Below are positions 29,985 through 46,378 of a stretch of DNA of 64,000 bases, in pieces (the stretch's first letter is position 1; each line of letters opens with the position of its first letter). The stretch lies in sequence record PQ631072.1. The stretch is one strand, 5' to 3'. The DNA comes from Escherichia phage EC.P2. The notes under the pieces were generated by a model. That model was not told the origin of the DNA. It worked only from the letters and a program-made list of their open reading frames with translations, and made no database searches. The position numbers and the translations under genes are program-made.

Positions 29985-30254
29985 CTAAAATGATTCGTTT
30001 GTCTCCATAATATATTGCATTTCCAAATCTTCCATATGTTTCTTAAATTGGTAAACAATTTCCGATGGGGAAATATCTATATCAAAAAGTTCTTTTGTAC
30101 CAGAATAGAACCTAATACCATCAACAATAAGGCCACCATAATAATCCCAATCACTTTCTCGTGAGAAAGGATTAGGTTCTTCATAATAGTAATCTACTTC
30201 AACAATAATAGGTTCTTTATTATCTTGTTTATACTCAAAATCAAAAGTGTTCAT
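29985..30254 (-). CDS. hypothetical protein
   Basis: 89 aa acidic ORF; 1-nt overlap with upstream gene. Confidence 0.4.
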   Translation of the reverse strand: MNTFDFEYKQDNKEPIIVEVDYYYEEPNPFSRESDWDYYGGLIVDGIRFYSGTKELFDIDISPSEIVYQFKKHMEDLEMQYIMETNESF

Positions 30255-31198: not shown

Positions 31199-31209
31199 AT
31201 GGCTCCTTG

Positions 31210-32184: not shown

Positions 32185-32857
32185 ATTTTTGAGCCTCCTC
32201 ATAAGAGATAAAAGTTTTACCATTGCGAAGATCCTCCAGTGATTGTTTATATTGTTCCCAGTTTACACCAATCCCCTGTTCTTTCTCTTCTTTTGACAGA
32301 TTTGCAAAAGGTAAAGGATTATCTCCAAACACATCGTCAGGATGGATAAACGCCATAATTCGAATAGGGCATGGTACGCCGTGAATACCTCGGTTCAAAC
32401 CTGCTAGTGGAACACGCTGAATCCACTCTGCATCTTCATATCCATAACCGTGGGTGTATGAGCGGAAATAGCCAGCTTTCTCAATAACTGCACGGGAATA
32501 CATACCAAACTGGCACATACCTAGTTCCCAAATAACCACTTCACCTTCAATACCTTTTACTTTATCTTTAAAATATTCAGGCATACCAAAGAAATCCCAG
32601 CCATTTTCCTTAGCCTGTTTTACAAAATATGTTTCCCAACCTGGCACAACCGGATAGCAATCATCATCAAAAATAAACCAGTAATCATACCCTTCATCAT
32701 AAAACTTTTTCATCAGTTCATTACGGGCATATGCAACACCTTTTCGTTCCCGATCATACTGTACAACAAAAGTAGCATTAGGATCAGTCACAAGATAATC
32801 TTTAAGAGGACGCTTACCTACAGTAATAACACCAACACCAATTTTTGTATTTTCCAA
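32171..32857 (-). CDS. glycosyltransferase (GT-A fold, family 2-like)
   Basis: 228 aa; DxD region YDYWFIFDDDCYP. Confidence 0.5.
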   Translation of the reverse strand: MENTKIGVGVITVGKRPLKDYLVTDPNATFVVQYDRERKGVAYARNELMKKFYDEGYDYWFIFDDDCYPVVPGWETYFVKQAKENGWDFFGMPEYFKDKVKGIEGEVVIWELGMCQFGMYSRAVIEKAGYFRSYTHGYGYEDAEWIQRVPLAGLNRGIHGVPCPIRIMAFIHPDDVFGDNPLPFANLSKEEKEQGIGVNWEQYKQSLEDLRNGKTFISYEEAQKYGKS

Positions 32858-32866
32858 AATAACTCC

Positions 32867-33430
32867 TTAAATAATTTTATTCATGTCTTGACAATGTAAA
32901 AGGTGTGAAACAGCTTTTCTAGGATCATCACTACCTAAACGGTATGTGTGAAATAAATATAGCCCACGTAATAAACCTAGCCTTTTATTGTTAGCGTGTA
33001 ATGCTTTAGAGAAAATTATATCAAACTGTATTGATCTTTCCTCAAAAGGGATTTCATTCCACAGACTCTTACGAAAGAGAAGAAAGAATCCTGCTAAGAT
33101 AGCATCTGTAGGTACTTCCTCTATTGAGTTTCCCCATTCTAGATGTGCTCTTTTTGCAATCTCAATGTGGTGTAATATATTTGGATCTTCACTTCTTTCA
33201 TTATTAAATAATTGATATGTTGATCCCAATCTATTACAAGATGCACCAAGAACATCAAAATCAGGATTTGAACGGACTATTGATTCCAACCAAGCAGGTT
33301 GTTCTGGAAGAAGAAACATTGTATCAATGTCTCTTAGGCAAATCCAACTATCTTCTGGTAAGACACTTATTGTGTCATTGATACCTTTTCCAATATCTCC
33401 AGAAAGATAGGGAGTTATGTGAAATATCAT
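32867..33430 (-). CDS. putative glycosyltransferase (GT-A-like)
   Basis: 187 aa; possible DxD (CLRDIDTMF); weaker than neighbours. Confidence 0.35.
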   Translation of the reverse strand: MIFHITPYLSGDIGKGINDTISVLPEDSWICLRDIDTMFLLPEQPAWLESIVRSNPDFDVLGASCNRLGSTYQLFNNERSEDPNILHHIEIAKRAHLEWGNSIEEVPTDAILAGFFLLFRKSLWNEIPFEERSIQFDIIFSKALHANNKRLGLLRGLYLFHTYRLGSDDPRKAVSHLLHCQDMNKII

Positions 33431-33487
33431 ACTCCCTCCGTATTATTACTTTAGCATTTTTAGACTAAAAAGTCCAAATGGTTTTAC

Positions 33488-33682
33488 CTATTGATTACGT
33501 TTTGCGAGTTCCATCTGGATAGCTAAACTGTGATCTCGTGCTTCCATATACTCTTTATATGTTTCATTAAGATGATCACGACAAACATCACGCAGTTTAA
33601 TCAGTTTATCTGTAGGGATACCACTAAGATCATCCCAAGATTTTACAACTTCACCAGTATCATTGATCCCAATGGTTTTCAT
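33488..33682 (-). CDS. hypothetical small protein
   Basis: 64 aa ORF. Confidence 0.35.
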   Translation of the reverse strand: MKTIGINDTGEVVKSWDDLSGIPTDKLIKLRDVCRDHLNETYKEYMEARDHSLAIQMELAKRNQ

Positions 33683-33938
33683 CTACAACCTCCTTAATTG
33701 CTACAGCACAGTTTTTGCAGATACACTGCCCTTTACCTTTAGAAATCTGGATGTAAGGTTCATTTTCATTTTCGCCCTTACGTGAGTCATATATTACAGA
33801 ATTGAAGCACACAACGCAAATATTTTTTAAGATTGTATACTTATCAACTTTCTTTTTTGTTTTAAAGTTAACTTCAATAACATCAGCCATCAGTGTAACA
33901 CTCCCAGTATGTTGTTTTGTGACATAACCATAGAACAT
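33660..33938 (-). CDS. small Cys-rich (zinc-finger-like) protein
   Basis: 92 aa; CVVCF...CICKNC cysteine pairs. Confidence 0.35.
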   Translation of the reverse strand: MFYGYVTKQHTGSVTLMADVIEVNFKTKKKVDKYTILKNICVVCFNSVIYDSRKGENENEPYIQISKGKGQCICKNCAVAIKEVVDENHWDQ

Positions 33939-34168
33939 TCAACATTATCGTGACTACGTGAAAAACGTTCCCAAACATCTTCATCGACTCGTAAAGCTAT
34001 ACAAGGATAGACGTTATCATTGATCATTTCAATTGAATAAACATCCACATTGTCTTCGTCTTCGATGAACATCATTGCAAACTGTTCTAAATGTTTCCTA
34101 ATGTAATGTACATCCTCTTCTGTAAGACCAATAACAAGATAACTTGCAACGATAACGCCATCTTTCAT
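33890..34168 (-). CDS. hypothetical small protein
   Basis: 92 aa ORF. Confidence 0.35.
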   Translation of the reverse strand: MKDGVIVASYLVIGLTEEDVHYIRKHLEQFAMMFIEDEDNVDVYSIEMINDNVYPCIALRVDEDVWERFSRSHDNVECSMVMSQNNILGVLH

Positions 34169-34178
34169 CTATATCTCC

Positions 34179-34688
34179 TTAGCGATAGAATTGATGTTCT
34201 TTGTAGCGGTACACTAGAACCATATCTTTTTCCCAGTGTGCTCTTATTGTAGATTTTTTAAAGTATAATGCTCCTTTTGTAATATCTAATGCAATTCGTA
34301 ATTCTGGAAAATGGTTATCGAGATAAAGTAGACGTTCTGCTATAGCTTTAGCGTCTTTCCACTTATCGTGTTCCATAACGTTGAATGTCTTCGTGTAAGA
34401 GAATTGTCCTTTTTGAAACAAAACTTCTTTTATAGTATCAGGGAAATATGAATCTCTCGCCCTATTCAATACTACATTACCAACAGCAGACATACCGCGC
34501 TTTCCTTGATTACGACTTTCTGCATAGATTGCACAAGCTAATAGATTTTCTTTACTATCACGCTTTGTACACTTGTGAACTACTTTAGCAGTTTTTACGT
34601 TTGCAGCTTCGGCTTGCGCCACAACAGGTGTAAATGTAAAAGCAGTTAAGGATAGTAACGCAATTGCGACAAAGGTTTTTATTGACAA
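34179..34688 (-). CDS. secreted cell-wall hydrolase (SleB / Hydrolase_2-like)
   Basis: 169 aa; TTG start with AGGAGG RBS; signal peptide (MSIKTFVAIALLSLTAFTFTPVVAQA); motif LLACAIYAESRNQ...GMSAVGNVVLNRA. Confidence 0.55.
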   Translation of the reverse strand: MSIKTFVAIALLSLTAFTFTPVVAQAEAANVKTAKVVHKCTKRDSKENLLACAIYAESRNQGKRGMSAVGNVVLNRARDSYFPDTIKEVLFQKGQFSYTKTFNVMEHDKWKDAKAIAERLLYLDNHFPELRIALDITKGALYFKKSTIRAHWEKDMVLVYRYKEHQFYR

Positions 34689-34780
34689 ACTTGCCTCCTA
34701 TTTTGTTAAACGAACTTTTATTGTAACACAGAAGAGGCTATTTTGCAAGTGGAGGGGGATAATCCCCCTCTTACACTCTG

Positions 34781-35383
34781 TTAGATATTGTAAACCTTTG
34801 TATGAGTTACTACACCATCTTCTACAAAATCAATACGTTCTTGATCCGTAACTAGTGCAGACAACACTTTAAATTTAATTTTTACACGTTCAAAAGCTGG
34901 TTGACCATCTTTAAGATAATTATGTTCAGTTGTCACTGTCTTGTTTACAAAATCAACTTTTGCTTTACCGTTCTCGCGTAAGTGGAATGTTTTTCCTGCT
35001 TTATACACAATTTCAACATTACCTTCGAGAGTAATTCCTTCAAAAAGTTCACCCTCTTCTTCATTTTCTTCACTTTTGAACAGACGACGAAACTCTTCCA
35101 TATCAAGATAAACAACATCTTCAGAATAACTATCAGTAAGATATGTCTTACCCTCCATTAACCCGAAATATTGCCAGATTGCCGAATAAACATCACTAGA
35201 TGATCCAAGGGTTTCTCTGAGTTTAGTTCCACGGATTACTTCATAAACTTCAAAATTGAAACCAGACTGCAAAGCATCAAACAGCACATCACTAACTTCT
35301 AAAGCATAATCTTCATTGTTGTCAATATCTACAAGAAAATTACCGCTACGAATAAGTTTTTGACCTTCTAAAGTAATACTCAT
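34781..35383 (-). CDS. hypothetical protein
   Basis: 200 aa acidic ORF, ATG with GAGGAG RBS. Confidence 0.45.
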   Translation of the reverse strand: MSITLEGQKLIRSGNFLVDIDNNEDYALEVSDVLFDALQSGFNFEVYEVIRGTKLRETLGSSSDVYSAIWQYFGLMEGKTYLTDSYSEDVVYLDMEEFRRLFKSEENEEEGELFEGITLEGNVEIVYKAGKTFHLRENGKAKVDFVNKTVTTEHNYLKDGQPAFERVKIKFKVLSALVTDQERIDFVEDGVVTHTKVYNI

Positions 35384-35410
35384 TGTTTTCTCCTCTTTTA
35401 TTTCAAATAT

Positions 35411-35426
35411 GCGCCCCGAAGGGCGC
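35411..35426 (-). terminator. hairpin downstream of TerD gene
   Basis: GCGCCCCGAAGGGCGC palindrome between TerD stop and next gene. Confidence 0.45.
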
Positions 35427-35447
35427 TATGATTTATTACTTGATGTA

Positions 35448-36044
35448 TTACTCGAACCAATCGTCGCCAGCGCCAAACGCTTTAACTACATCGTAAATGT
35501 CAAGCCCAGCTTTACCTACACCATATGCTTTCAGTTTCCATTCGCTATCTTCTCGCACCAGGGAGGCAACGTGGCAAATGGTGTTACCTGCAAGTTCTGG
35601 AGCCAAGAAGTCAAAGTCCAGCAGTTCAACATTACGTTCATCATCGAAGATTTTAAGGAAACCTTCGGTAGCGTGACCAAGGCGTTTCTTACCCGTTTCG
35701 TCATCAATAGTAATTACGAATGCAATTTCCTGTGCTTCAGCAGAGATATTATCCAGTGTAACATCAATCTGCTCCATCTGTCCTACACCATCACGAACAT
35801 CTTCACCTGCAAAAGTAGAACGTTCAGGATCAAATTTCTGTGCGTAGCACACCAGGTGACGAGGAGACAACAGTTCCGGCAGACCAGATGCATTGTGTCG
35901 GCAAATCAGAGCACTAACATCCAGATCCAGTTTTTCGTTAGATTTCCAAGAGAATTCCAGACGAATGCGTTTCAGTGCTGGTGCGATCTTTTTCAGAGAA
36001 ACTTTTTCGCTAGAACCTTTTTTCAGGGAAATTTTCTGAGTCAT
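35448..36044 (-). CDS. terD: TerD-domain protein
   Basis: 198 aa; N-terminus MTQKISLKKGSSEKVSLKK and internal ...FAGEDVRDGVGQMEQIDVTLDNI... fit TerD pattern; AAGGAGA RBS. Confidence 0.75.
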   Translation of the reverse strand: MTQKISLKKGSSEKVSLKKIAPALKRIRLEFSWKSNEKLDLDVSALICRHNASGLPELLSPRHLVCYAQKFDPERSTFAGEDVRDGVGQMEQIDVTLDNISAEAQEIAFVITIDDETGKKRLGHATEGFLKIFDDERNVELLDFDFLAPELAGNTICHVASLVREDSEWKLKAYGVGKAGLDIYDVVKAFGAGDDWFE

Positions 36045-36117
36045 AATTTATTATCTCCTTTGTTGTTAATTTACGTTGTCTATTTTACTAATCTTTTCTA
36101 CAAAGTCAAGCGTTTTT

Positions 36118-36912
36118 TTACGCTTTTGCTCCGAATTTTTTAACCCACTCACCAAACTCTTCAGATAACAATTTATCGTAAAGTTCTTCATCAGACAAGG
36201 ACAAATCTGCAATACCGATAAAATCAACATTATCGTACTCTTTTGCCAAGTCTTTCAGGAATTTAAAGTTTGCATTACCTACACCAACCATAAACCAGTA
36301 AACAGGCGTATTGCGGTGTTTGTTCAGTAAGCTACGTACTGCTGAAGTATCCATGTTTTCCCCGTCAGTTTGGAAGAAAATCATTGCAGGAGTACGATCA
36401 ACTTGTGCATCAGTGTCTACAACCTGTTCTACAACAGTACGTGTTACTTCTACAAGTTCTTTTTTACCAGTTAGTTTAGCAAGGAAACCCTTAGCTGGGA
36501 CTTCTTCATACTCAACGACTTCGCGTGTAATATTTTTCATAGGTACACTACCGAAGTATGTATCATAGATCTCCTGCATTACTGGAGCATAAGCAGTACC
36601 ACCATTGATGCAAACATTAGACATGCAAGAGCCGACATAATCATCATACACATCAGCCGTTGCAGGAGGCAGTTCAAAAGAAGAACTATTGAAAGCCCAC
36701 ATGTCAATCTGTGCATTGTCATCAAACTTCATACCAAACGGCAGCAGTTTACCTACAAAATCACTAACAGTGCCATCACGATACAGCTCACACATACTAC
36801 CCGAAATATCTAAGGCGCTACCGACACGAAGAACAACATCGTTAATCTTTTTCTTACGCAGAGATACAGTAAGAGTTTCTTGACGTTTTTTAAGACTGAT
36901 TTTATTGGACAT
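36118..36912 (-). CDS. vWA-domain protein (vWA-TerF-like)
   Basis: 264 aa; MIDAS motif ALDISGSM; N-terminal leader MSNKISLKKRQETLTVSLRKKK mirrors TerD N-terminus. Confidence 0.65.
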   Translation of the reverse strand: MSNKISLKKRQETLTVSLRKKKINDVVLRVGSALDISGSMCELYRDGTVSDFVGKLLPFGMKFDDNAQIDMWAFNSSSFELPPATADVYDDYVGSCMSNVCINGGTAYAPVMQEIYDTYFGSVPMKNITREVVEYEEVPAKGFLAKLTGKKELVEVTRTVVEQVVDTDAQVDRTPAMIFFQTDGENMDTSAVRSLLNKHRNTPVYWFMVGVGNANFKFLKDLAKEYDNVDFIGIADLSLSDEELYDKLLSEEFGEWVKKFGAKA

Positions 36913-36913
36913 A

Positions 36914-37183
36914 TTATTTCTCCTTTCTGAGTGTAATGTTAGTAACTTCTAAATCCACTTCTACCATTTCTGTATCATATGAAATACAGCTAAGTTGACC
37001 TCTTTGTGAACCGTTCAGACACATTGCTTGGTTTGTATTAACTTTAATAAACACTAAGTTTCTGAACGTATCTAAACCAGAATCTTGATACGCAACATAA
37101 TATACGAATGTATCACCTGCGTCAAGTTCTCCAAAACATTTAGGTTCATCTGATTTATCGTCTTTGATATTAAATTTAAGCAC
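36914..37183 (-). CDS. hypothetical protein
   Basis: 89 aa; stop 2 nt upstream of vWA start. Confidence 0.4.
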   Translation of the reverse strand: MLKFNIKDDKSDEPKCFGELDAGDTFVYYVAYQDSGLDTFRNLVFIKVNTNQAMCLNGSQRGQLSCISYDTEMVEVDLEVTNITLRKEK

Positions 37184-37739
37184 TGTCTTCTCCTTTACCT
37201 GCCCTCCAGCCTAAATAGAAAGCCTCTCTGGTGATCTTTTGCAACTCGTTTAAAGAGATAGTTACAACTAAATTATCTTCAATTTCTAGCTTTGAGTCTT
37301 CTTCTGTCTCAATGCAAGTATTATGCACTTTGTGGTAAGGATTGTCAACACGTTTAAATTTATTATTTTCAGTGCTGAAGAAGCAATCTGGATCTTCTTC
37401 TCCATCACCCCAACCCTGGTTAGGGTCTTCTTCAGATCTTTCTGTTGGGATCTCACCTGTAAAGTGCTCTTCTAATACCATAGCGATACCATCTCCAAGA
37501 TCGGAAGAGAACATCAAATTACAAACTTCTTCCCAAGGCATAGACCACTTAAATCTTTTACGATTACCATGTTTATCTTCTTCGTTAGAGAAAACACTAC
37601 CATAGCTATCATAATTGCCATACATCTCTTCAACAACTTTACCACCTTTCAAAAGAAATAGGTAGCAAGGAGAACCATCGAAAGAGGTAGAAAGAGCAGC
37701 ATTGCCAGACTCTTTGCACAAGAAACTAAAACACCCCAT
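37176..37739 (-). CDS. hypothetical protein
   Basis: 187 aa acidic ORF inside Ter-like cluster. Confidence 0.4.
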   Translation of the reverse strand: MGCFSFLCKESGNAALSTSFDGSPCYLFLLKGGKVVEEMYGNYDSYGSVFSNEEDKHGNRKRFKWSMPWEEVCNLMFSSDLGDGIAMVLEEHFTGEIPTERSEEDPNQGWGDGEEDPDCFFSTENNKFKRVDNPYHKVHNTCIETEEDSKLEIEDNLVVTISLNELQKITREAFYLGWRAGKGEDSA

Positions 37740-37939
37740 TATACACCAGCCTTAAGATCAATTAAAGCCAAAGTTGTTTCAGAATGTGTTTGCTCGTCTA
37801 CAGGTGCAGTCATATGATAATACAAAAAGTCTTCGGCATCATACCAATCTGATTCTTGACCTTGTTTCCAACCATCAATGAAAGCATCCTCCATAATGGT
37901 TTGTAATTCTTCACGAGTTAAGTGAATATCTTTATTCAT
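37739..37939 (-). CDS. hypothetical small protein
   Basis: 66 aa; 1-nt overlaps with both neighbours. Confidence 0.35.
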   Translation of the reverse strand: MNKDIHLTREELQTIMEDAFIDGWKQGQESDWYDAEDFLYYHMTAPVDEQTHSETTLALIDLKAGV

Positions 37940-38172
37940 TACACATTCTCCTCTTTTACCAATTCCATCGTTGAACTATCAAAACCATCTTTAGAAGAAT
38001 AGGTATAGACAGAACGTAGTTCTCGCAGGACAGTAAATACATTAGGATCATCTAACCAAGCATCCTGGAGGAGAACATAACGATCTTCATTGTCATACTG
38101 GACAGCAATCATAGAACCAGACAGTTTGTAAATTTTAATATTCATAATATATTTCTCCTTAAAGTAGACCAC
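37939..38172 (-). CDS. hypothetical small protein
   Basis: 77 aa. Confidence 0.35.
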   Translation of the reverse strand: MVYFKEKYIMNIKIYKLSGSMIAVQYDNEDRYVLLQDAWLDDPNVFTVLRELRSVYTYSSKDGFDSSTMELVKEENV

Positions 38173-39262
38173 GTTTAACAGTTTGAATCATACCATCTTC
38201 AAGAGATTGCACTTCTTGAATGTAATCAATACGAGCAGCACGGGCTTCAGTGTTGATTCGGTTAGTTTCTTCCAACATTTTAACTAAGTTTTCTTGATCG
38301 CGACGTAATGTTTCAATATCCAATACTTGACGATTAGCAAGTTGCGTAGCTTCAATTTGGTTTTGTGCAGCCAGATCACTACCCATTGCAATAGCAGCAT
38401 TAAATTCATTCAGTACATTGTTCTGTGTATCGGCTGCTTTCTTCTGGCGTAGACTTTCAATATACATAGAAAAGTTTGCAGAGTAAGCAGGAATAACATT
38501 ATTCACAATATTACGGGCTGATCGCATCAAACTTGCAGATACTTTCTGCATACTTTGTACACGTGGCCCCATCTGAACACACAGTAAACGCAAGGCTTTC
38601 AGGTCTGCAATACGAATTTCAAGCAGATCCATAGTATCACGAGTACGTTGACGCTCTTCTACTTCATTTTCAGGTAGTGTATTAAGGCGAACTTCTTCTT
38701 TTTCATAAGTAGCTGTTAGAAGCTCTATATCCCTGTTTAAGCTAAGAGCATATTTTGCAATAGCCTCTTCTAAACGTTGCAGATATCGTAAAGAATCTTC
38801 TTCTTTTTTCAAGTCTGTTTGGAGTGTCTTTACCAAACCTTCAATACGATTATTGATGGTGTCAAATTCACCAAACAAATCTTCTTTCATACCTAATACT
38901 TTCTTAACTAGTTTACCTAAGCCTTTAGATTGTTTAATAGAATTAGGATCAAGTTGCTTTGCTTGCTTAATAAGTGCAGTTAAACGCTCACTCATTTCAT
39001 CTCCCTGAGATGAACGCTGGTGTTTAAGCACTTCCGCATTAAGGTTACGAAGAGTAAGTCCTGCATCAGCACCAACCTGTTCAATCTCTTCACGAGACAT
39101 TGGAGGCAGCATTTGTACAGGTCGTGCAACAGCAGGGGCATATACAGGGCTTGCATCCATAGCAGTTGGAGCAAACAAAGACTTACTTTTTTCTGTTGTT
39201 GCCGTGAATACACTCATTTCAGACGGTTTGCTTTTTACGGCACTGATAAAAGGACTGGACAT
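38159..39262 (-). CDS. telA: TelA-like (toxic anion resistance family) protein
   Basis: 367 aa, long helical/coiled-coil protein of TelA size and composition; GGAGGA RBS; sits between TerD/vWA and TerC. Confidence 0.5.
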   Translation of the reverse strand: MSSPFISAVKSKPSEMSVFTATTEKSKSLFAPTAMDASPVYAPAVARPVQMLPPMSREEIEQVGADAGLTLRNLNAEVLKHQRSSQGDEMSERLTALIKQAKQLDPNSIKQSKGLGKLVKKVLGMKEDLFGEFDTINNRIEGLVKTLQTDLKKEEDSLRYLQRLEEAIAKYALSLNRDIELLTATYEKEEVRLNTLPENEVEERQRTRDTMDLLEIRIADLKALRLLCVQMGPRVQSMQKVSASLMRSARNIVNNVIPAYSANFSMYIESLRQKKAADTQNNVLNEFNAAIAMGSDLAAQNQIEATQLANRQVLDIETLRRDQENLVKMLEETNRINTEARAARIDYIQEVQSLEDGMIQTVKRGLL

Positions 39263-39330
39263 TCAATTTCCTCCATATTCTTTAGTAGATGGTGATACCT
39301 CTGTACCACCATCATAACACAAATTAAGTA

Positions 39331-40182
39331 TTAAACAAACATATCTAAATAATTTGTAGTAATAAATGCTCCATCTGCTTCCAGATTAACATAACCAGTA
39401 GCATTAGTGGTTAAGAAATCCAGATCGAAGGACTCTTTAACACCCCGTACCTCAACACGAGAGATATCGAATACAGGTAGTGTAACAGCCTCTTCGTGCA
39501 ATACCGTACCTTTGTAGGTTGCCTTAATGATAAACTTGATATTACCCGTTCCCGCATCATACAAAACACTTTCAAAGCCTTTGAGAGTATACTTATCACC
39601 AGAGGTGAAGTGCAAAGTTGCTTTGTTTACAGTACGTTTTTTACGAGGAGTTCCTTTCACACGTTTATGATCACTACGTTTTTTGTATTTAGGAATGAAT
39701 ACAAACGATACACTCTCAAGAAAAGTATCAACATCAAGGATTTTAATATCCTCTGTTGCAGCAAATTTTGAAGTCGTTGCATCAAAATGCTTTGCTCTGC
39801 GATCATACATAAAGATATCAAACCGATCTTCTAAATCAAACAAATTGTGTATCTTAATTTCAGAATGCTTGCACATTGCAGCAACCTTAAACTCTTCAAA
39901 ACGTGGGTGTTCTACAAGCTCTTCAAGTTTTACACCAAAGACAGTATATTGTTTCGAAGTTTTTTCTGGCGTTGGCATTACAGAAGCATAATCACCGATT
40001 GCGCTTTTAAAGCAAAATTGTTCTTGACCTGTATTTTTACCAACGAATTTACAGTATTCGTCATCGTGCATACTTTCTTTGGTAGTACCAACAAACTCAA
40101 AACCATCTTTATTCTTCTCAAGAATTTCTTGATTAAAGATCCAACCTTCCAGGCGATACACTTTACCAACTTCTAGTTTCAT
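39331..40182 (-). CDS. hypothetical protein
   Basis: 283 aa ORF between TelA-like and lipoprotein genes. Confidence 0.4.
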   Translation of the reverse strand: MKLEVGKVYRLEGWIFNQEILEKNKDGFEFVGTTKESMHDDEYCKFVGKNTGQEQFCFKSAIGDYASVMPTPEKTSKQYTVFGVKLEELVEHPRFEEFKVAAMCKHSEIKIHNLFDLEDRFDIFMYDRRAKHFDATTSKFAATEDIKILDVDTFLESVSFVFIPKYKKRSDHKRVKGTPRKKRTVNKATLHFTSGDKYTLKGFESVLYDAGTGNIKFIIKATYKGTVLHEEAVTLPVFDISRVEVRGVKESFDLDFLTTNATGYVNLEADGAFITTNYLDMFV

Positions 40183-40217
40183 CTGTTTCTCCTTCTTATT
40201 TAATCTGTATTAAATTA

Positions 40218-40808
40218 TTAACGACGACGTGAGCTACTAAAACTACGTTTCGACGAAGAATAACTTTTCGAAGACTTACTATAAGAGCTAATAGGGCTTG
40301 AGTAAGACTTACGAGCAGAGTAATTACTATTCACTTTTGTTGTTGATGGGCGTGAATACGTTTGTACACTTTGCTGCTTAATTGTGTTTTGTTTAGTGGT
40401 TGTATATGTATTCCCTTGTTTATCATAAAAACTATGCTTTTGTGTTGTATATGCTTTACTATTAGTTGTAGGAGCAGCGTTGTTATTGATAATTGTTGTA
40501 TTGCTACCGCCATCTCTATAACCACCACCGCCACTATTACCACTCAACATATGACCAAGAAGCATACCTGTAGCAAATTCACCTACACCAGAAGAACCAC
40601 TGCCGCCTCCTTGCACAACAACTGTTGAAGGTTGTGCAGGTGCTGCTTGAACAACTTGAGGTGCAGGTTGATTTACATATTGTTCATCTACCATCTGATT
40701 TGGTGTTTGTTGGTAACGTTGGTTTTGTACATTTTCAGAATCATCACAACCTACCAGCAATGCACTACCTAATACAACTGCAACAATAAAAGATTTAATG
40801 TTTTTCAT
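40218..40808 (-). CDS. lipoprotein with glycine-zipper segment
   Basis: Track ORF 40218..40823; ATG at 40808 (MKNIKSFIVAVVLGSALLVGC) gives signal peptide with lipobox LVGC; GGGSGSSGVGEFATGMLLGHMLSGNSGGGG; Ser/Tyr/Lys-rich C-terminus ending RRR. Confidence 0.5.
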   Translation of the reverse strand: MKNIKSFIVAVVLGSALLVGCDDSENVQNQRYQQTPNQMVDEQYVNQPAPQVVQAAPAQPSTVVVQGGGSGSSGVGEFATGMLLGHMLSGNSGGGGYRDGGSNTTIINNNAAPTTNSKAYTTQKHSFYDKQGNTYTTTKQNTIKQQSVQTYSRPSTTKVNSNYSARKSYSSPISSYSKSSKSYSSSKRSFSSSRRR

Positions 40809-41001
40809 TTGTAACCCTCTCATTTAAAGTCTCAACACAATTTTTAAAATCTCTAGAGAAACAATACATCTGTTCTCCGTTCCTGTTGATAGTAATTGTA
40901 TGGTTATCAACATATGTTGTCAAGATAAAAATCAAACAAAATAACCCTAAAGCAAAACAAATATTTTCAAACAGAATCCAAAGAACACGTAAAACCACCA
41001 T
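40795..41001 (-). CDS. small hydrophobic protein
   Basis: 68 aa, one TM helix. Confidence 0.3.
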   Translation of the reverse strand: MVVLRVLWILFENICFALGLFCLIFILTTYVDNHTITINRNGEQMYCFSRDFKNCVETLNERVTNEKH

Positions 41002-41015
41002 CAGATCACCTCAAC

Positions 41016-41034
41016 AAAGCCCCCGAAGGGGCTT
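41016..41034 (-). terminator. hairpin terminator after TerC gene
   Basis: AGCCCCCGAAGGGGCT palindrome just below TerC stop. Confidence 0.5.
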
Positions 41035-41040
41035 AATGAA

Positions 41041-42018
41041 TTAAGCAACAGTCTGGTCTTCTTTTTCAGGGAAGATTAAACTTGCAATAACACCCAGCCC
41101 CAGAGTACCTAACACAATATACATACTGATCGTCGGATCAATGTGTGCTGGCAGGAAACTCACTTTTGCGTGCAGAGTTTCTGCAAACGGGTGATACATC
41201 AGTTTTACACCCACAAATACCAGGACTACGATAACTGCTTTCTCCAGATGAACCAAATATTTCAGTGCAACACTAAGGACAAAGAACAGAGCACGTAGAC
41301 CTAAAATTGCACACAGCATTGAAGAAAATACAAGCAGAGGTTCTTGTGTCACTGCAATTACTGCTGGAACAGAGTCTACTGCAAAGATTACGTCAACCAT
41401 TTCCATTACAAACACACAAACCAATGCAGGAGTTGCTACACGAACACCATTTTTGATTGTGAAGAACTTCTCACCATCCATCTGATCAGATACAGGGAAC
41501 AGCTTACGAACAATGCGAGTAGCCCAGTGTTTAGAGTAATCAACTTCTGCGTCATTATCTCCAGCGAATACCATTTTAGCTGCGCAGAAAAGGATGACCG
41601 CACCGAAGAAGATATTAACATACCAGCCCAAACTCAACAAGTAAGTACCTACTGCTACAAACACACCTCGGAAGACAATCGCACCTGCAATACCCCAAAG
41701 TAGAATCTTGTGCTGCAAGTGTGTGCTTTTAATACCAAAACTTGCGAATACTGCCACAAATACTACTAAGTTATCTACAGAAAGAGATTTCTCCAACACA
41801 TACCCACTCAAGAACAAGCTCGCAAAATCAGCACCGTGTTGGAAGTATACAAAACCATAGTAGGCTAATGATACCCCAATCCAGAAAATTGACCAGCCAA
41901 TTGCAGATTTAAATGAAATTTCTTTGTTTTCTCTGTGTCCAAAGAAATCAATACAAATCGACAAGACTAAAATACCCACTAAAACAACCACATCAATAAT
42001 TGGGAAACCCAGTTGCAT
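41041..42018 (-). CDS. terC: TerC-family integral membrane protein
   Basis: 325 aa, multiple TM helices, conserved acidic/Asn motifs (LSVDNLVVF; AVDSVPAVIAVTQEP); GAGGAG RBS. Confidence 0.7.
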   Translation of the reverse strand: MQLGFPIIDVVVLVGILVLSICIDFFGHRENKEISFKSAIGWSIFWIGVSLAYYGFVYFQHGADFASLFLSGYVLEKSLSVDNLVVFVAVFASFGIKSTHLQHKILLWGIAGAIVFRGVFVAVGTYLLSLGWYVNIFFGAVILFCAAKMVFAGDNDAEVDYSKHWATRIVRKLFPVSDQMDGEKFFTIKNGVRVATPALVCVFVMEMVDVIFAVDSVPAVIAVTQEPLLVFSSMLCAILGLRALFFVLSVALKYLVHLEKAVIVVLVFVGVKLMYHPFAETLHAKVSFLPAHIDPTISMYIVLGTLGLGVIASLIFPEKEDQTVA

Positions 42019-42036
42019 TCTTTTCTCCTCTTTAAT

Positions 42037-42055
42037 GCGGAGGACAATCCTCCGC
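42037..42055 (-). promoter_or_regulatory. GC hairpin immediately upstream of TerC RBS
   Basis: GCGGAGG-ACAAT-CCTCCGC; on minus strand lies between upstream gene stop and TerC Shine-Dalgarno, no T-tract. Confidence 0.3.
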
Positions 42056-42095
42056 TCTATGTCGTATACTATAAACTGTTTTTAAAGAAAGTCAA

Positions 42096-42344
42096 CTAGT
42101 TCAGTTCTGTAATTTTAAGTTTATCTTCTTTGTTAATGATAGGGAAAGCTACAGCATCACCTACATCATCAATAAAGCAAACAGCAAGACCACCTTCCAC
42201 TTTGCTAACCTGACCATTAAAGGCGTGATACGGGGCAGGAACAATATCTCCATCTTCAAGGAGAATAGCCTCATAAACCTTACCAACAGTACAATCACGA
42301 GTGTTTATAAATTTTTCAAGCACTTCAACATTTACTTTACGCAT
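42096..42344 (-). CDS. hypothetical small protein
   Basis: 82 aa. Confidence 0.4.
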   Translation of the reverse strand: MRKVNVEVLEKFINTRDCTVGKVYEAILLEDGDIVPAPYHAFNGQVSKVEGGLAVCFIDDVGDAVAFPIINKEDKLKITELN

Positions 42345-42358
42345 ATAAAGATCCTCTC

Positions 42359-42565
42359 TTATTTGTTAGATTGAAAGATACCACGAAGTACCGCAAGAAT
42401 GAACGTCACACAGACTACACTCCAAAACGTTACAGGAACATGATGCCAGTCTAAGCCGATAATGTCAATCATATAGTTGTATGCTAAAAGCAGTAGCCAA
42501 CTAGGGATTAACACAATCAAGAACACAACAATAAAACAACCTAATACTGCTAAAACACCTGCCAT
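42359..42565 (-). CDS. small membrane protein
   Basis: 68 aa, two TM helices. Confidence 0.4.
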   Translation of the reverse strand: MAGVLAVLGCFIVVFLIVLIPSWLLLLAYNYMIDIIGLDWHHVPVTFWSVVCVTFILAVLRGIFQSNK

Positions 42566-42574
42566 ACTTTCTCC

Positions 42575-43291
42575 TTATTTCAGTTTGTAAACAATTACAT
42601 TTAAACCTTTGTTCACTAGAGTTTCTTCGATCATAAGTTTTACAATATTCCAAGAACCTCCAGCCAAACCACAACCAAGCATTGGTAAACCTACAATTTT
42701 ACCGCCTGAAGATACAACATCGTCTCCCATACTATCTAACGCATTGTAGATAGCTTCATAATTCAGGTCACGCTTACCTTCCTCACGACGACTATAACCA
42801 TATTGTCCATATAAATTATAAATTGTCAAATTGTTTTCTGTATACTTAGTAAACGTACCTAATTTTTTATAATCACCACGTTTAGTGGCACAATCTGCTT
42901 TAAACGCACCAGGCCACTTGCTTTTAATTTTTGGTGCAATACCACTACCCATAGTGCAAAAACAGTTACAGCAGTGTGCTATAGCGTCTATATCGCCTCT
43001 CTCTGCTGCTGCTAAAAGATCACCGTATACCTCAATGATACCTGGTGGATAACTTGTTACAATCTCATCTTCCCAGTACATTTGCTCTACACCACCGATC
43101 AGTGCAAAGTTTTGTGTGATGCGATCATCAATATAATTAAGACCTGAAACATACACAGCATATTCATCCTGTGCTGTAATGCCTTGTACACGAATTCTTA
43201 AGACACCATCTTTATCTGTTGCTACACGCCCAAAATCTTTTTCTGTAATATTGGTGATAGGATCTCCGAAAGTCGTCACTTTATTAGACAT
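42575..43291 (-). CDS. macro-domain protein (TARG1/OARD1/DarG-like ADP-ribose hydrolase fold) with N-terminal extra domain
   Basis: Track start is TTG at 43408 inside PRTase gene; ATG at 43291 (MSNKVTTFG) overlaps PRTase stop by 8 nt. C-terminal half AHCCNCFCTMGSGIAPKIKSKWP ... LPMLGCGLAGGSWNIVKLMIEETL ... VIVYKL parallels TARG1 (AHCISEDCRMGAGIA ... [24 protein letters not shown] ... ITVYTL). Confidence 0.7.
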   Translation of the reverse strand: MSNKVTTFGDPITNITEKDFGRVATDKDGVLRIRVQGITAQDEYAVYVSGLNYIDDRITQNFALIGGVEQMYWEDEIVTSYPPGIIEVYGDLLAAAERGDIDAIAHCCNCFCTMGSGIAPKIKSKWPGAFKADCATKRGDYKKLGTFTKYTENNLTIYNLYGQYGYSRREEGKRDLNYEAIYNALDSMGDDVVSSGGKIVGLPMLGCGLAGGSWNIVKLMIEETLVNKGLNVIVYKLK

Positions 43292-44141
43292 AATAATCCC
43301 CTTTAACATTAGATTTGTTGATAATGTTGCTTTCAAAAAATTGACGCAGGAAATCAAAGTTCTCTTTGTATTTTTCAATATTATTGTAACCTTCTGCAAG
43401 GCAACCAAAGAACAGTTGTTCTACATAATACAAAGGAAGTTGTGAAAGTGCAATTTTAAAATCAACTTCGCTTTGACTCATTAGATACTTAATAGGACGA
43501 ACCAAACATTTAGCATCAGTTTCTTGCTTAATCATTTTAATAAAAGCTGCCAGGTTATTGATATAGTTGAAGTTAAGTGCAGCTTCGGTGTTGGCTTCTG
43601 TACCTTCATACTTTGCAAAGTACAGGAAAAACGTATCGTTTTCAACACCTTCTTTGTCTAAAATTTCAATAAGTTTTTCTTCGTGTGTTCCTGTAATATT
43701 AACATCATCAATGAAAATCAGAGTTTTATTACCCCAGAAATCACGATTGATAGAGAAAGTGTCACCATCGATCAAAGCCTTACGATCTTCTTTGCTAAGA
43801 AATCCATAATCATTGATATAACTCACTTTACGATGAACGATATCCCACTCTACTGCTTTACCTCCTTTGATAGAGATTAGGTAGTTGAGGTGATCTACAA
43901 AATGTTCAGATAACACTGTAGCTGCATTTTTCACATAGTTATATGGAGATGGAATAACAACAAAACTTTCATTTACTAGTCGTTCTTCATATTTAGAAAA
44001 GAAACTTTCAGCTAGAATGCGTCCCATTCTTTTTGCTGCCTGGTTACTACCAAACTTTAGTTTGGAATAATCTGCAATGTTAAATTTTGCTTCCTTCAGG
44101 TTAGTAAAAGTATTAGCAAAATGTTGAATTTGATTACGCAT
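43284..44141 (-). CDS. phosphoribosyltransferase (type I PRTase fold)
   Basis: 285 aa; PRPP-binding motif TLIFIDDVNITGTHEE; ATG with AGAGGA RBS; stop/start overlaps with both neighbours. Confidence 0.65.
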   Translation of the reverse strand: MRNQIQHFANTFTNLKEAKFNIADYSKLKFGSNQAAKRMGRILAESFFSKYEERLVNESFVVIPSPYNYVKNAATVLSEHFVDHLNYLISIKGGKAVEWDIVHRKVSYINDYGFLSKEDRKALIDGDTFSINRDFWGNKTLIFIDDVNITGTHEEKLIEILDKEGVENDTFFLYFAKYEGTEANTEAALNFNYINNLAAFIKMIKQETDAKCLVRPIKYLMSQSEVDFKIALSQLPLYYVEQLFFGCLAEGYNNIEKYKENFDFLRQFFESNIINKSNVKGDYYV

Positions 44142-44790
44142 TAATAAGTTCCTCTTTTTTAAGTTTAGCCAACAAGTCTTCTGGATTAATAATATGACAG
44201 AACTTCATCCCTATGTCAACAGCTTTTCCATCATAAATCAAACTATCTCCAACGTGTAAAATCTCCTCTGGTGCGAGATCAAACGTTACCATTTCATCAA
44301 AAGAGAGTTTAAAAAACCTAGGATCTGGTTTACACAAGCAAAACTCATCAGAAAAATGCATAAAGTCAAATGGTAATTTTGTTAAGCCAGAATATACAGC
44401 TAAGAAACTACCTGGTACAAAATTAGTATTGCTCTTAATACTCAAAGAATAGGTTGAACTTAGCTCTTCCAACTTCTTGCAAAGCTCAGGGTTCAATATT
44501 GGAGGATGTTTTATAAACATTGCTAAACAGTCTCTTTTTAACCCATCTACTTTATCAAGATCAATGTTCAAACGAGCAGAGAGTGTTTCCCAAGCATTCC
44601 TAGACGTTCCACAAATGCCTTTTTCTGCTTTTAAATCCAGGAGAGTTTTTACCTCTTTATATACGGTAGCTGCTTCTGCTTCAGAACAAGAGGCATACTC
44701 GGCAATAACCTTGTTGCGTTCTTCTGCATACAAAGGATTAGCAGTAATAAGAGTATTCCATACATCAAAAGAAATATGCTTAACAGTCAT
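44134..44790 (-). CDS. HAD-superfamily phosphatase
   Basis: Track start TTG at 44808; ATG at 44790 with GGAGGA RBS gives MTVKHISFDVWNTL (HAD motif I DxxxT); later HVGDSLIYDGKA (motif IV-like). Confidence 0.6.
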   Translation of the reverse strand: MTVKHISFDVWNTLITANPLYAEERNKVIAEYASCSEAEAATVYKEVKTLLDLKAEKGICGTSRNAWETLSARLNIDLDKVDGLKRDCLAMFIKHPPILNPELCKKLEELSSTYSLSIKSNTNFVPGSFLAVYSGLTKLPFDFMHFSDEFCLCKPDPRFFKLSFDEMVTFDLAPEEILHVGDSLIYDGKAVDIGMKFCHIINPEDLLAKLKKEELINA

Positions 44791-44792
44791 TT

Positions 44793-44948
44793 TTAATCCT
44801 CCGTCCAAAAGAATATCATCTGCTTAATTTTATTGATCTCTTGATGTAGTAACTTTCCAGCATGTGATTGATCTTTAATATTGACAGCAAGAATTTCAAG
44901 CTCCGTTAGTTTTTCCTGGATAGCTTTATATTCATCATCTGTAAGCAT
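44793..44948 (-). CDS. hypothetical small protein (below ORF-track cutoff)
   Basis: 51-codon ORF found by hand (MLTDDEYKAIQEKLTELEIL...); weak RBS; stop overlaps HAD RBS. Confidence 0.3.
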   Translation of the reverse strand: MLTDDEYKAIQEKLTELEILAVNIKDQSHAGKLLHQEINKIKQMIFFWTED

Positions 44949-44959
44949 TTTCTTCCCCT

Positions 44960-45163
44960 TTAGAATGGTAATCTTTGTATGTCACTTAGCCCCACACCCA
45001 GAAGTCTAGCAATATCCTTATCTAAAAGCAACTCTTTTTGTTCTAAAATGTTAATCAAATCTCCTAATACTTCTTTAATGTCACGATCATTTTTAGCAAC
45101 GTGACCACCTGCGGTATCAACTTTATCTTTAAAAACAAAATAATGATCCATAATACCCTCCAT
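44960..45163 (-). CDS. hypothetical small protein
   Basis: 67 aa ORF after terminator hairpin. Confidence 0.4.
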   Translation of the reverse strand: MEGIMDHYFVFKDKVDTAGGHVAKNDRDIKEVLGDLINILEQKELLLDKDIARLLGVGLSDIQRLPF

Positions 45164-45170
45164 ATAAATA

Positions 45171-45192
45171 AAGGAGGCTTTCGCCTCCTTTT
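45171..45192 (-). terminator. rho-independent terminator after AAA+ ATPase gene
   Basis: AAAGGAGGCTTTCGCCTCCTTTT; T-run on minus strand. Confidence 0.6.
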
Positions 45193-45197
45193 ATCAC

Positions 45198-46358
45198 TTA
45201 GTAAGAACGACCACCAAACACATACTCTGTGTAGTTTTTACGTTCTTTGTTTTTAATAACAACTTCAATGTTGTTACCTTTATCATCGGTGAACATAAAG
45301 TGATAACCGTCACCACCCATTGTACGAATGTGTTTTTCATCATACGTTAGCAAGATACGGTCTACACCCCAGTAGTAGTCACCTTCTTCATCTTTATCTT
45401 CCACAGTAACGATCCCTTCCATTTCAGGAAGATGCTCTTCTCCTGACTTATGATCTACAGCTACAACATAACGATTACCGCTAAACAAACCTTGTGCTGT
45501 CATACCGTCAATATCGGTATCTGACGAAACATCTCCTGTACGATCTACACCGTTAACTTTCAGAAGTTTAACTTCTTTTGCAGCATAGCGGTGTTCAGTA
45601 ATACTGATACCCATTAATGCAAGTGCATCAGAGAATTTGTCATTAGGGTAACGGTTAAGTTCTTCTACTAATGACTGAACAATATCAAAGTTCAAGTCCA
45701 CGGAAAGATTATAAAGCGTTTCAAAATCTGGCAAGAAGGCTTTGTTCTCCAGATTTTTAGCCAGATAATCATCCATAGTAGCTTTAGGTAGTTTCTTATA
45801 GCTAAAACTGTAGAAAATACGGCTAGGACGATTACGCAAAAATTCTGATACATAACCATCATTTTTAGTCAATACAAACAGCTTGTCATAACCACCAACA
45901 CCATCCAGCAGGGTAAGCAAACCATCTTGTGCATCTTTTTCAGCATACAGTTTATCAAATTCATCGATCATAATCATCACAGGTTGTGTGATTTTAGACA
46001 TAAAATTGATAAAGCCTTCACCATTAAAAGCACTACCGATAGAAATAGTAGGAATACCCATTTCACGAAGAGCAGAAGACAGCATTTTAGCTTGCAAAGT
46101 TTTACCGCTACCTTTCGTACCCTCAAGGAGAACACCTGTGTTTTTACCTTTGCGGCTAAGGAACGTCTTGATAATACGTTCTGATTTATCATCAGTATCA
46201 CCGTATGTTACTGAAGGGACTTCCATATCATTTTTAGGATACAGGAAGAACTCACCACTTTGAGTAACACCTACACCAAAAGTTCCTGCTGGGATTTCTT
46301 CAATATCTGTACCAGATTTCTGACGCAGGAAGATTTGATTGCCGAATACTGTAAACAT
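45198..46358 (-). CDS. AAA+/P-loop ATPase (paralogue A)
   Basis: 386 aa; Walker A GTKGSGKT, Walker B IMIDEFDK; clear paralogue of 61376..62503. Confidence 0.65.
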   Translation of the reverse strand: MFTVFGNQIFLRQKSGTDIEEIPAGTFGVGVTQSGEFFLYPKNDMEVPSVTYGDTDDKSERIIKTFLSRKGKNTGVLLEGTKGSGKTLQAKMLSSALREMGIPTISIGSAFNGEGFINFMSKITQPVMIMIDEFDKLYAEKDAQDGLLTLLDGVGGYDKLFVLTKNDGYVSEFLRNRPSRIFYSFSYKKLPKATMDDYLAKNLENKAFLPDFETLYNLSVDLNFDIVQSLVEELNRYPNDKFSDALALMGISITEHRYAAKEVKLLKVNGVDRTGDVSSDTDIDGMTAQGLFSGNRYVVAVDHKSGEEHLPEMEGIVTVEDKDEEGDYYWGVDRILLTYDEKHIRTMGGDGYHFMFTDDKGNNIEVVIKNKERKNYTEYVFGGRSY

Positions 46359-46378
46359 AGTTTTCTCCTCTATTTAAT

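Follow-up and report, generated by a model that had tools for sequence, protein, structure and literature searches.

The window analysed here, a 64,000-nt stretch of Escherichia phage EC.P2 DNA (sequence record PQ631072.1), carries a block of tellurite resistance-type (Ter) genes that lies on the minus strand throughout, from 44808 down to 35448 (~9.4 kb, all co-oriented), between nrdDG and a gene for a cell wall hydrolase with a Sec signal. The block encodes one TerD protein, a TerF-like vWA protein, a TelA protein and a TerC membrane protein, together with a HAD hydrolase, a phosphoribosyltransferase (PRTase) of the PRTase_3 family and a macrodomain protein. The block is the form that the phage-borne Ter system takes in Stephanstirmvirinae, and we consider this assignment of its composition almost certain. 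The block is real, conserved and under purifying selection, and it belongs to a kind that has already been annotated and described.

Composition of the Ter block

The initial annotation, made from the letters of the window, had pointed to four Ter-type genes between 35448 and 42018, and the profile searches run as a check did not refute it: all four core proteins score three to five times the Pfam gathering cut-off (Table 1). Four independent domain matches with E<1e-27 within 6.6 kb are far beyond chance. The coordinates of the open reading frames (ORFs), their co-orientation on the minus strand and the phage origin of the DNA were likewise borne out. The TerD protein also matches the PDB entry 2kxt (E=8.6e-15) and is 81% identical to its counterpart in phage ESCO13 (Phapecoctavirus); its acidic loop reads GEDVRDGVGQME versus GDNRTGEGDGDDE in Klebsiella pneumoniae TerD and is degenerate. 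In the structure paper on K. pneumoniae TerD, the loop, with the motif GDN(R/L)TG(E/A)GDGDDE, is reported to be the Ca2+-binding site. The vWA protein has a ~25-aa insert specific to the subfamily and no TerD half fused to it, and the metal ion-dependent adhesion site (MIDAS) that had been noticed earlier is complete: DxSxS (DISGS), T (GGT) and D (TDGE) are all there, and none of them varies among 10 phage homologues. The protein first noted as TelA-sized and helical is matched over positions 13-330 of the 332 in the PF05816 profile and by phrog_5890 (E=2e-136); it is 78% identical to that of ESCO13, with a ratio of nonsynonymous to synonymous substitution rates (dN/dS) of ~0.08. For TerC, the NCBIfam model TIGR03718 of the TerC/Alx metal-homeostasis subfamily gives 323 bits (cut-off 246), and hydropathy reveals at least eight hydrophobic spans, as befits the multi-pass protein originally described; the identity to ESCO13 is 72% (dN/dS ~0.15). 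The Pfam and NCBIfam scores, the TerC spans and the full MIDAS therefore confirm the original observation. Also supported is its view that the sequence does not indicate a role in tellurite resistance itself.

The module extends further than first described, with additional partners upstream of TerC, at 42575-44808. The HAD protein also matches NCBIfam HAD-IA subfamilies; it retains motifs II-IV and has SFDVWNTL as motif I, with an invariant nucleophile Asp. As a separate observation, the motif I pattern is closer to dehalogenase-type HADs than to phosphatases. The stop of the HAD gene overlaps the PRTase start by 8 nt, and the start of the macrodomain gene overlaps the PRTase stop by 26 nt. 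The phosphoribosyl pyrophosphate (PRPP) loop of PRTase_3, IFIDDVxITGTHE, is conserved in 20 homologues with invariant core residues; 306 homologues were found, and the closest of those with examined context are phage-borne. The macrodomain protein carries a ~90-aa N-terminal extension, and its relatives among proteins of known structure are PDB 5e3b (E=5e-15), 2fg1 and OARD1 (4j5q), of the TARG1/SCO6735/BT1257 class. Its closest relatives, TARG1/OARD1, SCO6735 and DarG, belong to a class of enzymes by which ADP-ribose is taken off Glu or thymidine in DNA. Unlike DarG, the phage protein has the extra N-terminus and no C-terminal antitoxin domain: against the full-length DarG model NF048014 of NCBIfam it scores 48.9 bits, far below the cut-off of 250, with only the N-terminal macro part aligning, and the PADLOC DarG model matches it (E=1e-13) over model positions 6-144 of 329.

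The genes had been described as one operon set; instead, they appear to form about five transcription units, separated by hairpins and sigma70-like promoters and all on the minus strand. The first unit is tightly packed and holds the genes for a 63-aa and a 51-aa protein, HAD, PRTase_3, the macrodomain protein, a 68-aa protein with two hydrophobic spans and an 82-aa protein. The second consists of a sigma70-like promoter with a hairpin in the 5' untranslated region (UTR), TerC and a GC-rich hairpin, and the third of the single-span 68-aa protein, a lipoprotein and a 283-aa protein. The fourth begins with a hairpin, followed by TelA, the 68-aa, 66-aa, 187-aa and 89-aa proteins and vWA, and the fifth comprises a promoter, TerD and the hairpin GCGCCCTTCGGGGCGC. 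The leader of TerC is about 45 nt long and contains a simple GC-rich hairpin of 7-8 bp that starts ~12 nt past the -10 box. The combination of promoter and hairpin ahead of TerC is kept between genera. Across six Stephanstirmvirinae phages, five of the seven hairpin pairs show compensatory changes, so that the structure is conserved and the sequence is not; the same promoter-hairpin precedes the gene of a DUF475 protein in Klebsiella phage 05F01. The hairpin may be an mRNA-stabilising element of the 5' end or a regulatory stem. The window has a threefold excess of sites with the pattern TTGAC[AT]-N16-18-TAnnnT, and these lie preferentially on the coding strand, which fits transcription by the host RNA polymerase.

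Table 1. Features of the Ter block and its immediate surroundings, in window coordinates. Cut-offs are gathering cut-offs in bits; L numbers denote loci of our collection.
Feature	Position	Strand	Basis or remark
200-aa protein	34781..35383	-	no significant Pfam family; phrog_22473; absent from ESCO13 and 05F01
Hairpin after TerD	35411-35426	-	terminator hairpin, GCGCCCTTCGGGGCGC
TerD-domain protein	35448..36044	-	PF02342, E=5.1e-28, 98 bits (cut-off 25.3)
Sigma70-like promoter of TerD	36045..36117	-	TTGACT-16-TAAAAT; not conserved at this position in ESCO13 or 05F01
Stand-alone vWA-TerF-like protein	36118..36912	-	PF10138, E=1.2e-38, 134 bits (cut-off 29.4)
89-aa beta-rich protein	36914..37183	-	stop 1 nt before vWA start; no Pfam match
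187-aa protein (accessory)	37176..37739	-	no Pfam match; phrog_14928; absent from 05F01, L010, L012, L013
66-aa protein	37739..37939	-	found in all Stephanstirmvirinae loci examined, between TelA and vWA
68/77-aa protein	37939..38172	-	phrog_26823; found only within subfamily
TelA (toxic anion resistance family)	38159..39262	-	PF05816, E=5.1e-34, 118 bits (cut-off 30)
283-aa protein, variable slot	39331..40182	-	no Pfam match; only 2 homologue clusters
Lipoprotein	40218..40823	-	lipobox LVGC, Asp at +2; phrog_21570
68-aa single-span membrane protein	40795..41001	-	hydropathy; phrog_17591; retained behind TerC in four related phages
TerC-family integral membrane protein (Alx/TerC subfamily)	41041..42018	-	PF03741, E=1.2e-38, 133 bits (cut-off 27.8)
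TerC leader hairpin	42019-42068	-	also at L003 5764-5813, L015 11578-11627, L013 5523-5572, L012 11521-11570, L006 2417-2466
TerC upstream region	42019..42095	-	sigma70-like promoter TTGACT-16-TATAGT, 5'-UTR hairpin GCGGAGGATTGTCCTCCGC, ribosome-binding site
82-aa protein	42096..42344	-	no Pfam match; phrog_17459; closer relatives only
68-aa protein, two hydrophobic spans	42359..42565	-	hydropathy; phrog_16065
Macrodomain protein (TARG1/SCO6735/DarG type)	42575..43309	-	Pfam Macro PF01661, E=2.4e-7
ComF-like phosphoribosyltransferase PRTase_3	43284..44141	-	PF15610, E=1.1e-41, 143.5 bits (cut-off 28.7)
HAD-superfamily hydrolase	44134..44808 (annotated start 44790)	-	PF00702, E=1.6e-5, 25.8 bits (cut-off 26.4)

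Conservation and genomic linkage

Over the 7.5 kb around the cluster, identity is 97.6-99.1% to the 30 best-matching records of E. coli phages, which belong to Justusliebigvirus, the phi92-like genus of the subfamily Stephanstirmvirinae, and 80-90% to ~50 records of Phapecoctavirus (phAPEC8-like). The same 7.5 kb also occur at 98.4% identity in four unannotated GenBank records labelled as Campylobacter jejuni phages (MG065639, MG065645, MG065656 and MG065689; 'Campylobacter phage' A150, A145, C3 and A110a), and this host label is doubtful. In ESCO13 the order of genes is the same: nrdG, HAD, PRTase_3, macrodomain, transmembrane protein, TerC, transmembrane protein, lipoprotein, TelA, small ORFs, the 187-aa and 89-aa proteins, vWA and TerD, and then a cell wall hydrolase. 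Amino acid identity to ESCO13 across the block is 48-81%, and dN/dS is ~0.08-0.2 for most genes, 0.43 for HAD and 0.09 for nrdG, these ratios being rough as dS is saturated. The most divergent relative, phage 05F01 (L006), keeps TelA, the 66-aa and 89-aa proteins, vWA and TerD, and its PRTase_3 is located elsewhere in the genome. In 05F01 the TerC slot (2467-3531 of the locus) holds a protein of the DUF475 family (PF04332, E=5e-93; its match to TerC is weaker), which belongs to the TerC clan, an in-place swap between two related families of membrane proteins. Judged by the gene content of 05F01, therefore, TelA, vWA, TerD and a membrane protein of the TerC clan form the core, and the lipoprotein and the 66-aa and 89-aa proteins are subfamily-specific companions.

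Recent capture of the genes from the E. coli host was considered and rejected, as no long nucleotide match was found: E. coli terC shares with the phage TerC gene only a 190-nt patch (20%) at 70% identity. Bacterial TelA homologues are only ~20-27% identical, the Ter proteins of the block are ~20-30% identical to bacterial ones, and the closest TelA relatives examined are phage-borne. Taken together, the phage-borne closest relatives, the low identity to bacterial proteins and the short terC patch point to an old phage lineage.

To see whether the enzyme pair is linked to Ter genes, loci with PRTase_3 homologues were gathered from phages in GenBank, from IMG/VR, from contigs of metagenomes and from the genomes of 100,044 species, and Ter families were mapped on them with purpose-built profiles, the single-sequence E-values of calls outside the subfamily being 1e-7 or lower. 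In each of the 40 loci examined, a HAD gene lies directly upstream of PRTase_3. Beyond the Stephanstirmvirinae, HAD-PRTase_3 is found within 10 kb of Ter genes in eight phage loci (L007, L008, L014, L018, L020, L022, L023 and L027), which represent about six distinct arrangements with shuffled gene order, such as TerC-TerD-vWA-HAD-PRTase_3, TelA-HAD-PRTase_3-vWA and TelA-vWA...HAD-PRTase_3-TerD. Such recurrent adjacency in shuffled order is a classic signature of functional linkage. Pfam defined PRTase_3 from Ter-linked operons. Two Bacteroidota contigs from metagenome-assembled genomes (MAGs; L041 and L042), which may be phage DNA binned into MAGs, have two to three TerD genes beside HAD-PRTase_3. 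A contig of a GTDB species-representative MAG, labelled 'Proteobacteria bacterium MAG' (L028, JAEZZU010000022.1), is a Phapecoctavirus fragment with HAD-PRTase_3-macrodomain at 65% identity. The scan of species genomes gave just 15 PRTase_3 loci in 100,044 species, mostly in Rhizobiaceae and with no Ter neighbours, plus MAG contigs, and a bacterial origin of the PRTase_3 clade was rejected on this ground. In Rhizobium, Sinorhizobium and Ensifer (L029-L040; e.g. pRL10 of R. johnstonii 3841) the pair stands alone among unrelated metabolic and partition genes; the rhizobial enzymes share ~40% identity with those of the phage and resemble the ones in Rhizobium phages.

Known Ter systems and a possible role of the block

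The novelty implied by the initial annotation was too high. Near-identical GenBank records already name the genes (the annotation of OR525700 reads 'terD family', 'vWA found in TerF C-terminus', 'toxin anion resistance protein', 'integral membrane protein TerC', 'macro domain', 'phosphoribosyltransferase' and 'HAD hydrolase'), and phage Ter modules, their link to a PRTase and a HAD protein and the exclusion hypothesis have all been published. A table from 2015 lists phi92 gp172, gp173 and gp178 as TerD, TerD and tellurite resistance, respectively (PMC4690881). The four-gene subset terC, terD, terF-vWA and telA is described in the virulent phage phiPsa374 (PMC9796965) and in phiKp34 (PMC8386662), where the same families sit together in a single co-oriented cluster of the early region. 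TelA and vWA proteins of phiPsa374 are homologous to those described here at 22-26% identity, a related macrodomain lies 3 kb away, and no HAD-PRTase_3 pair was seen within the 17 kb examined; since the identity is very low, the phiPsa374/phiKp34 cluster represents a separate lineage. According to Iyer et al. (2021), Ter systems occur in jumbo 'and certain other related smaller tailed phages'; that of phage ME3, which includes PRTase and HAD, is called 'relatively complete', and TerB is optional in abbreviated systems. They proposed that the enzymes produce a nucleoside/nucleotide signal sensed by TerB and TerD, that TerC alters membrane transport, and that TelA and vWA build sub-membrane structures, so that superinfecting phages are excluded (PMC7824862). 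In gut jumbo phages, terD operons are highly transcribed (PMC12880540). Jumbo-phage systems, such as that of Acinetobacter phage vB_AbaM_ME3, share TerD, TerC, TerF-type vWA, TelA, PRTase and HAD with the present block, which differs from them, as they are described, in its non-jumbo genome (145-150 kb), the frame-overlapping macrodomain, the lack of TerB and the degenerate TerD loop. Our additions are modest: the invariable adjacency of HAD and PRTase_3, the overlap of the macrodomain and PRTase frames, the degenerate TerD metal loop, the atypical HAD motif I and the DUF475 swap.

As regards bacterial systems, the plasmid and chromosomal terZABCDEF operons (IncHI2 R478, E. coli O157, K. pneumoniae) have TerC, TerD and vWA (the C-terminal half of TerF) in common with the phage block. 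They contain four or five TerD paralogues, TerB and a TerD-vWA fusion, whereas the phage block has one TerD, no TerB and an unfused vWA, and includes TelA, which is not part of the terZ-F operon. The yceCDEFGH cluster of Bacillus subtilis, which encodes three TerD proteins, the TerC-family YceF, YceG and the TelA-family YceH, is found in the context of cell-envelope stress; it shows the same combination of TerD, TerC and TelA as the phage block, with neither vWA nor PRTase/HAD, and belongs to a bacterial stress regulon. In the model of Anantharaman, Iyer and Aravind, Ter proteins form a hub. Of its features, TerD, TerC, TelA, the MIDAS vWA and a linked PRTase and HAD were found here, and TerB and an intact acidic loop of TerD were not. 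In bacteria, phage inhibition and colicin resistance depend on terC, terD and terZ, and deletion of terC in K. pneumoniae leads to larger plaques and to Zn/Mn sensitivity (PMC12054061). It is these terZABCDEF phenotypes (phage inhibition, colicin resistance and Zn/Mn resistance) that inspired the following model.

We tentatively propose, while judging the chance to be somewhat short of even, that the block specifies an early, metal-linked inner-membrane complex that protects the envelope of the infected cell, a version of the Anantharaman/Iyer/Aravind model fitted to this locus. Host RNA polymerase would transcribe the block early, in line with the host-type promoters ahead of TerC and TerD, and TelA, vWA and TerD would assemble around TerC at the cytoplasmic face of the inner membrane. 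The complex would alter divalent-cation flux and membrane state, and a nucleoside-like product of the PRTase and HAD may control it. As a net effect, the envelope would stay protected until the phage's own lysis, and the insults countered could be colicins, the entry of DNA from superinfecting phages, or effectors of abortive infection that act on the membrane. A location at the membrane is suggested by the TerC spans, the two small transmembrane proteins and the lipoprotein. In E. coli, Asp at position +2 causes inner-membrane retention of lipoproteins (the +2 rule), and such retention is predicted for this one. The invariant MIDAS and the place of TerC in the Alx/TerC metal-homeostasis subfamily are consistent with a link to metals. 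To judge from the swap in 05F01, a TerC-clan protein appears to be required in the TerC slot. The order HAD-PRTase_3-macrodomain-transmembrane protein-TerC...TelA...vWA-TerD, kept between Justusliebigvirus and Phapecoctavirus at 65-81% amino acid identity and a dN/dS of ~0.08-0.2, much as for nrdG, argues for a maintained function.

A number of observations weigh against this proposal. No TerB, which besides TerD is the proposed ligand sensor, and no other Pfam match was detected in 20 flanking and intervening ORFs at E<=0.1, and the PADLOC models match no Ter protein among the scanned ORFs. The partners that had been expected among the unassigned ORFs (TerB, ATP-grasp, kinase or phosphatase) were rejected after Pfam, NCBIfam and PADLOC scans: the Pfam scans of flanking and intervening ORFs revealed no ATP-grasp, kinase or PP2C, and the ORFs of 66-187 aa are excluded as ATP-grasp or kinase proteins because they are too small. 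The TerY-P anti-phage defence system, which combines a TerY-type vWA with a PP2C phosphatase and a Ser/Thr kinase, was likewise not recognised by these scans. The TerD loop lacks the GDGDD part and has a 2-residue deletion in this subfamily only, other phage TerDs retaining the loop. In the HAD protein, the residue at Asp+2 is Trp or Tyr in 23 of 23 aligned members; with the general acid replaced, the usual phosphatase mechanism is therefore not assured, and a step from nucleotide to nucleoside by this enzyme is uncertain. The AlphaFold2 (AF2) model of TelA is all-alpha with very long helices and of low confidence (predicted local distance difference test, pLDDT, 58), and a Foldseek search with it against the PDB gave no match at E<=1e-3. 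Early timing is read from the promoter consensus only. Literature searches found no experiment on any phage-encoded Ter gene, and the phiPsa374 paper calls the functions unknown (PMC9796965). The idea put forward in the initial annotation, that the phage might manipulate the host envelope or subvert a host defence, stands as a hypothesis. Finally, HAD-PRTase_3 occurs with no Ter genes nearby in phage XaC1 (whose TerD lies 165 kb from the pair), in Rhizobium and Caulobacter phages, in several metagenomic loci and in Rhizobiaceae replicons; in the Rhizobium phages it adjoins a gene for a nicotinamide mononucleotide (NMN) adenylyltransferase/Nudix protein. Since the adjacency to Ter genes is recurrent, yet the pair is also found free of them, the linkage is strong but not obligatory.

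The Ter-free occurrences would be expected if the block consisted of two unrelated parts, HAD-PRTase_3-macrodomain being a self-contained counter-defence or metabolic cassette for nucleotides or ADP-ribose (by reversal of ADP-ribosylation or synthesis of a modified nucleotide, for example) that merely neighbours the Ter genes. The ADP-ribose-removing TARG1/DarG type of the macrodomain, the homologous macrodomain of phiPsa374, which sits beside NAMPT and PRPP-synthetase genes, and the displaced PRTase_3 of 05F01 all fit this idea; about six distinct shuffled arrangements of HAD-PRTase_3 next to Ter genes do not, and we hold it to be rather improbable. A role in metal homeostasis is also unlikely in our view. 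TerC would then be an exporter of Mn2+/Zn2+/Ca2+ or a metallation factor, with TerD, vWA and TelA as metal-sensing accessories, and the aim would be metal levels that suit phage enzymes or metal loading of exported proteins, such as the SleB-type hydrolase downstream. TerC proteins of B. subtilis metallate secreted enzymes; in the phage, TerC passes the TerC/Alx metal-homeostasis model, the MIDAS is intact, and the block sits between nrdDG and the gene of the Sec-signal hydrolase. On the other hand, we know of no metal requirement in SleB-type hydrolases, and neither the recurrent HAD-PRTase linkage nor the conservation of TelA and vWA, equal to that of TerC, is explained in this way. The Zn and Mn resistance affected by K. 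pneumoniae terC (PMC12054061) would favour metal homeostasis, but an Rfam scan of 33000-47000 found no metal-sensing riboswitch upstream of TerC, including the Mn2+-responsive yybP-ykoY type.

Another possibility, also a slim one, is that the Ter proteins act in a phage-shock-like manner on the timing of lysis, keeping the inner membrane energised and intact over a long infection and preventing premature activation of an exported endolysin. The block adjoins the signal-peptide hydrolase, which is annotated as endolysin in ESCO13, and small transmembrane proteins and a lipoprotein are interleaved with the Ter genes, but the 'holin' label that the BME3 record gives to 42359-42565 has no support in PHROGs, and Ter genes of other phages do not adjoin lysis genes. 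TelA is modelled as a long helical protein, bacterial TelA contributes to nisin tolerance (PMC12791056), and a terD of gut jumbo phages adjoins a pspA-like gene (PMC12880540). Any claim of a BAR or PspA-like fold for TelA was rejected, as the fold search returned only generic coiled-coil, BAR and chemoreceptor bundles (E>0.01, TM-score <=0.35). It is very improbable that the phage proteins serve as decoys or dominant-negative partners that poison or hijack a host ter-encoded phage-inhibition complex. A ter-type terC is present in ~19% of complete E. coli genomes (1010/5426), and bacterial ter does inhibit phages (PMC12054061). However, the phages are routinely isolated on E. coli K-12, yet the block is under purifying selection, and the low identity to the bacterial proteins, with the 190-nt terC patch, fits an old phage lineage rather than host mimicry. 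To our knowledge, E. coli K-12 has no ter operon.

A bolder version of the protective complex, to which we assign little probability, is a virus-encoded membrane immunity device controlled by a small molecule. HAD-PRTase_3 would make an unusual nucleoside or nucleotide, the macrodomain would edit or degrade it, TerD or the small conserved partners would sense it, and the TerC/TelA/vWA complex would shut the inner membrane to phage DNA and colicins. The replacement of Asp+2 by Trp in the HAD protein would be part of an atypical chemistry, and the bacterial Ter systems on plasmids and prophage-like islands would derive from phage superinfection exclusion. What Ter proteins do biochemically has been asked since the 1990s. 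With one TerD, vWA, TelA and TerC and the enzyme pair, the phage block is a convenient minimal system for the study of the complex and of the PRTase/HAD product, and the phages that carry it are easily manipulated and infect E. coli K-12, among them members of the BASEL collection such as PaulScherrer.

Accessory proteins and neighbouring genes

The stretch 36914-38172, first treated as one ORF, actually holds four small ORFs, of 89, 187, 66 and 68/77 aa. The 89-aa protein has a 40% identical homologue at the same position in 05F01 and a paralogue between vWA and TerD in Phapecoctavirus (ESCO13); in a library of 1.8 billion proteins it matches DUF11/DUF7507 Ig-like repeats of giant surface proteins, with E down to 2e-11. 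The 66-aa protein shares the motif ELQxIxxxAFxxGWxxG with the C-terminus of the 187-aa protein. The lipobox supports the glycine-zipper lipoprotein of the initial annotation; this protein consists of a glycine-rich segment and a tail rich in Ser, Thr and Lys, and its homologues in ESCO13 and 05F01 are 31-36% identical. The slot of the 283-aa protein is taken in ESCO13 and 05F01 by other genes, including one for a SprT-like peptidase; the AF2 model of the protein, with a pLDDT of 31, is unusable. The region 48735-49685, which seemed to hold a paralogue of the 283-aa ORF, was rejected because the similarity stemmed from profile drift (pairwise E=0.17). The two-span 68-aa protein is conserved between the macrodomain protein and TerC in ESCO13, L012, L013 and L015. 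It is doubtful that the 200-aa protein downstream of TerD is a member of the module; it shows a weak match (E=2.8e-4 in a set of 2610 ORFs) to an ORF located between TerC and vWA in L018.

Between nrdG and the HAD-PRTase_3 unit, an AAA-type ATPase (phrog_2376; 45198-46358, minus strand) is encoded, which is found in Justusliebigvirus and absent from Phapecoctavirus ESCO13. On the other side of the block, the SleB-type cell wall hydrolase (PF07486; 34179-34688, minus strand) has an apparently cleavable Sec signal peptide (…VVAQA, with EA following the cleavage point), and the presence of such a putative exported endolysin beside the Ter block is suggestive. Further along, at 30254-33430 on the minus strand, four consecutive glycosyltransferase-like genes adjoin primase/helicase and DNA polymerase genes. 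One of them has a sub-threshold match to the TET-associated glycosyltransferase family PF20691 (E=6.8e-5), and the targets of these enzymes could be DNA or surface glycans.

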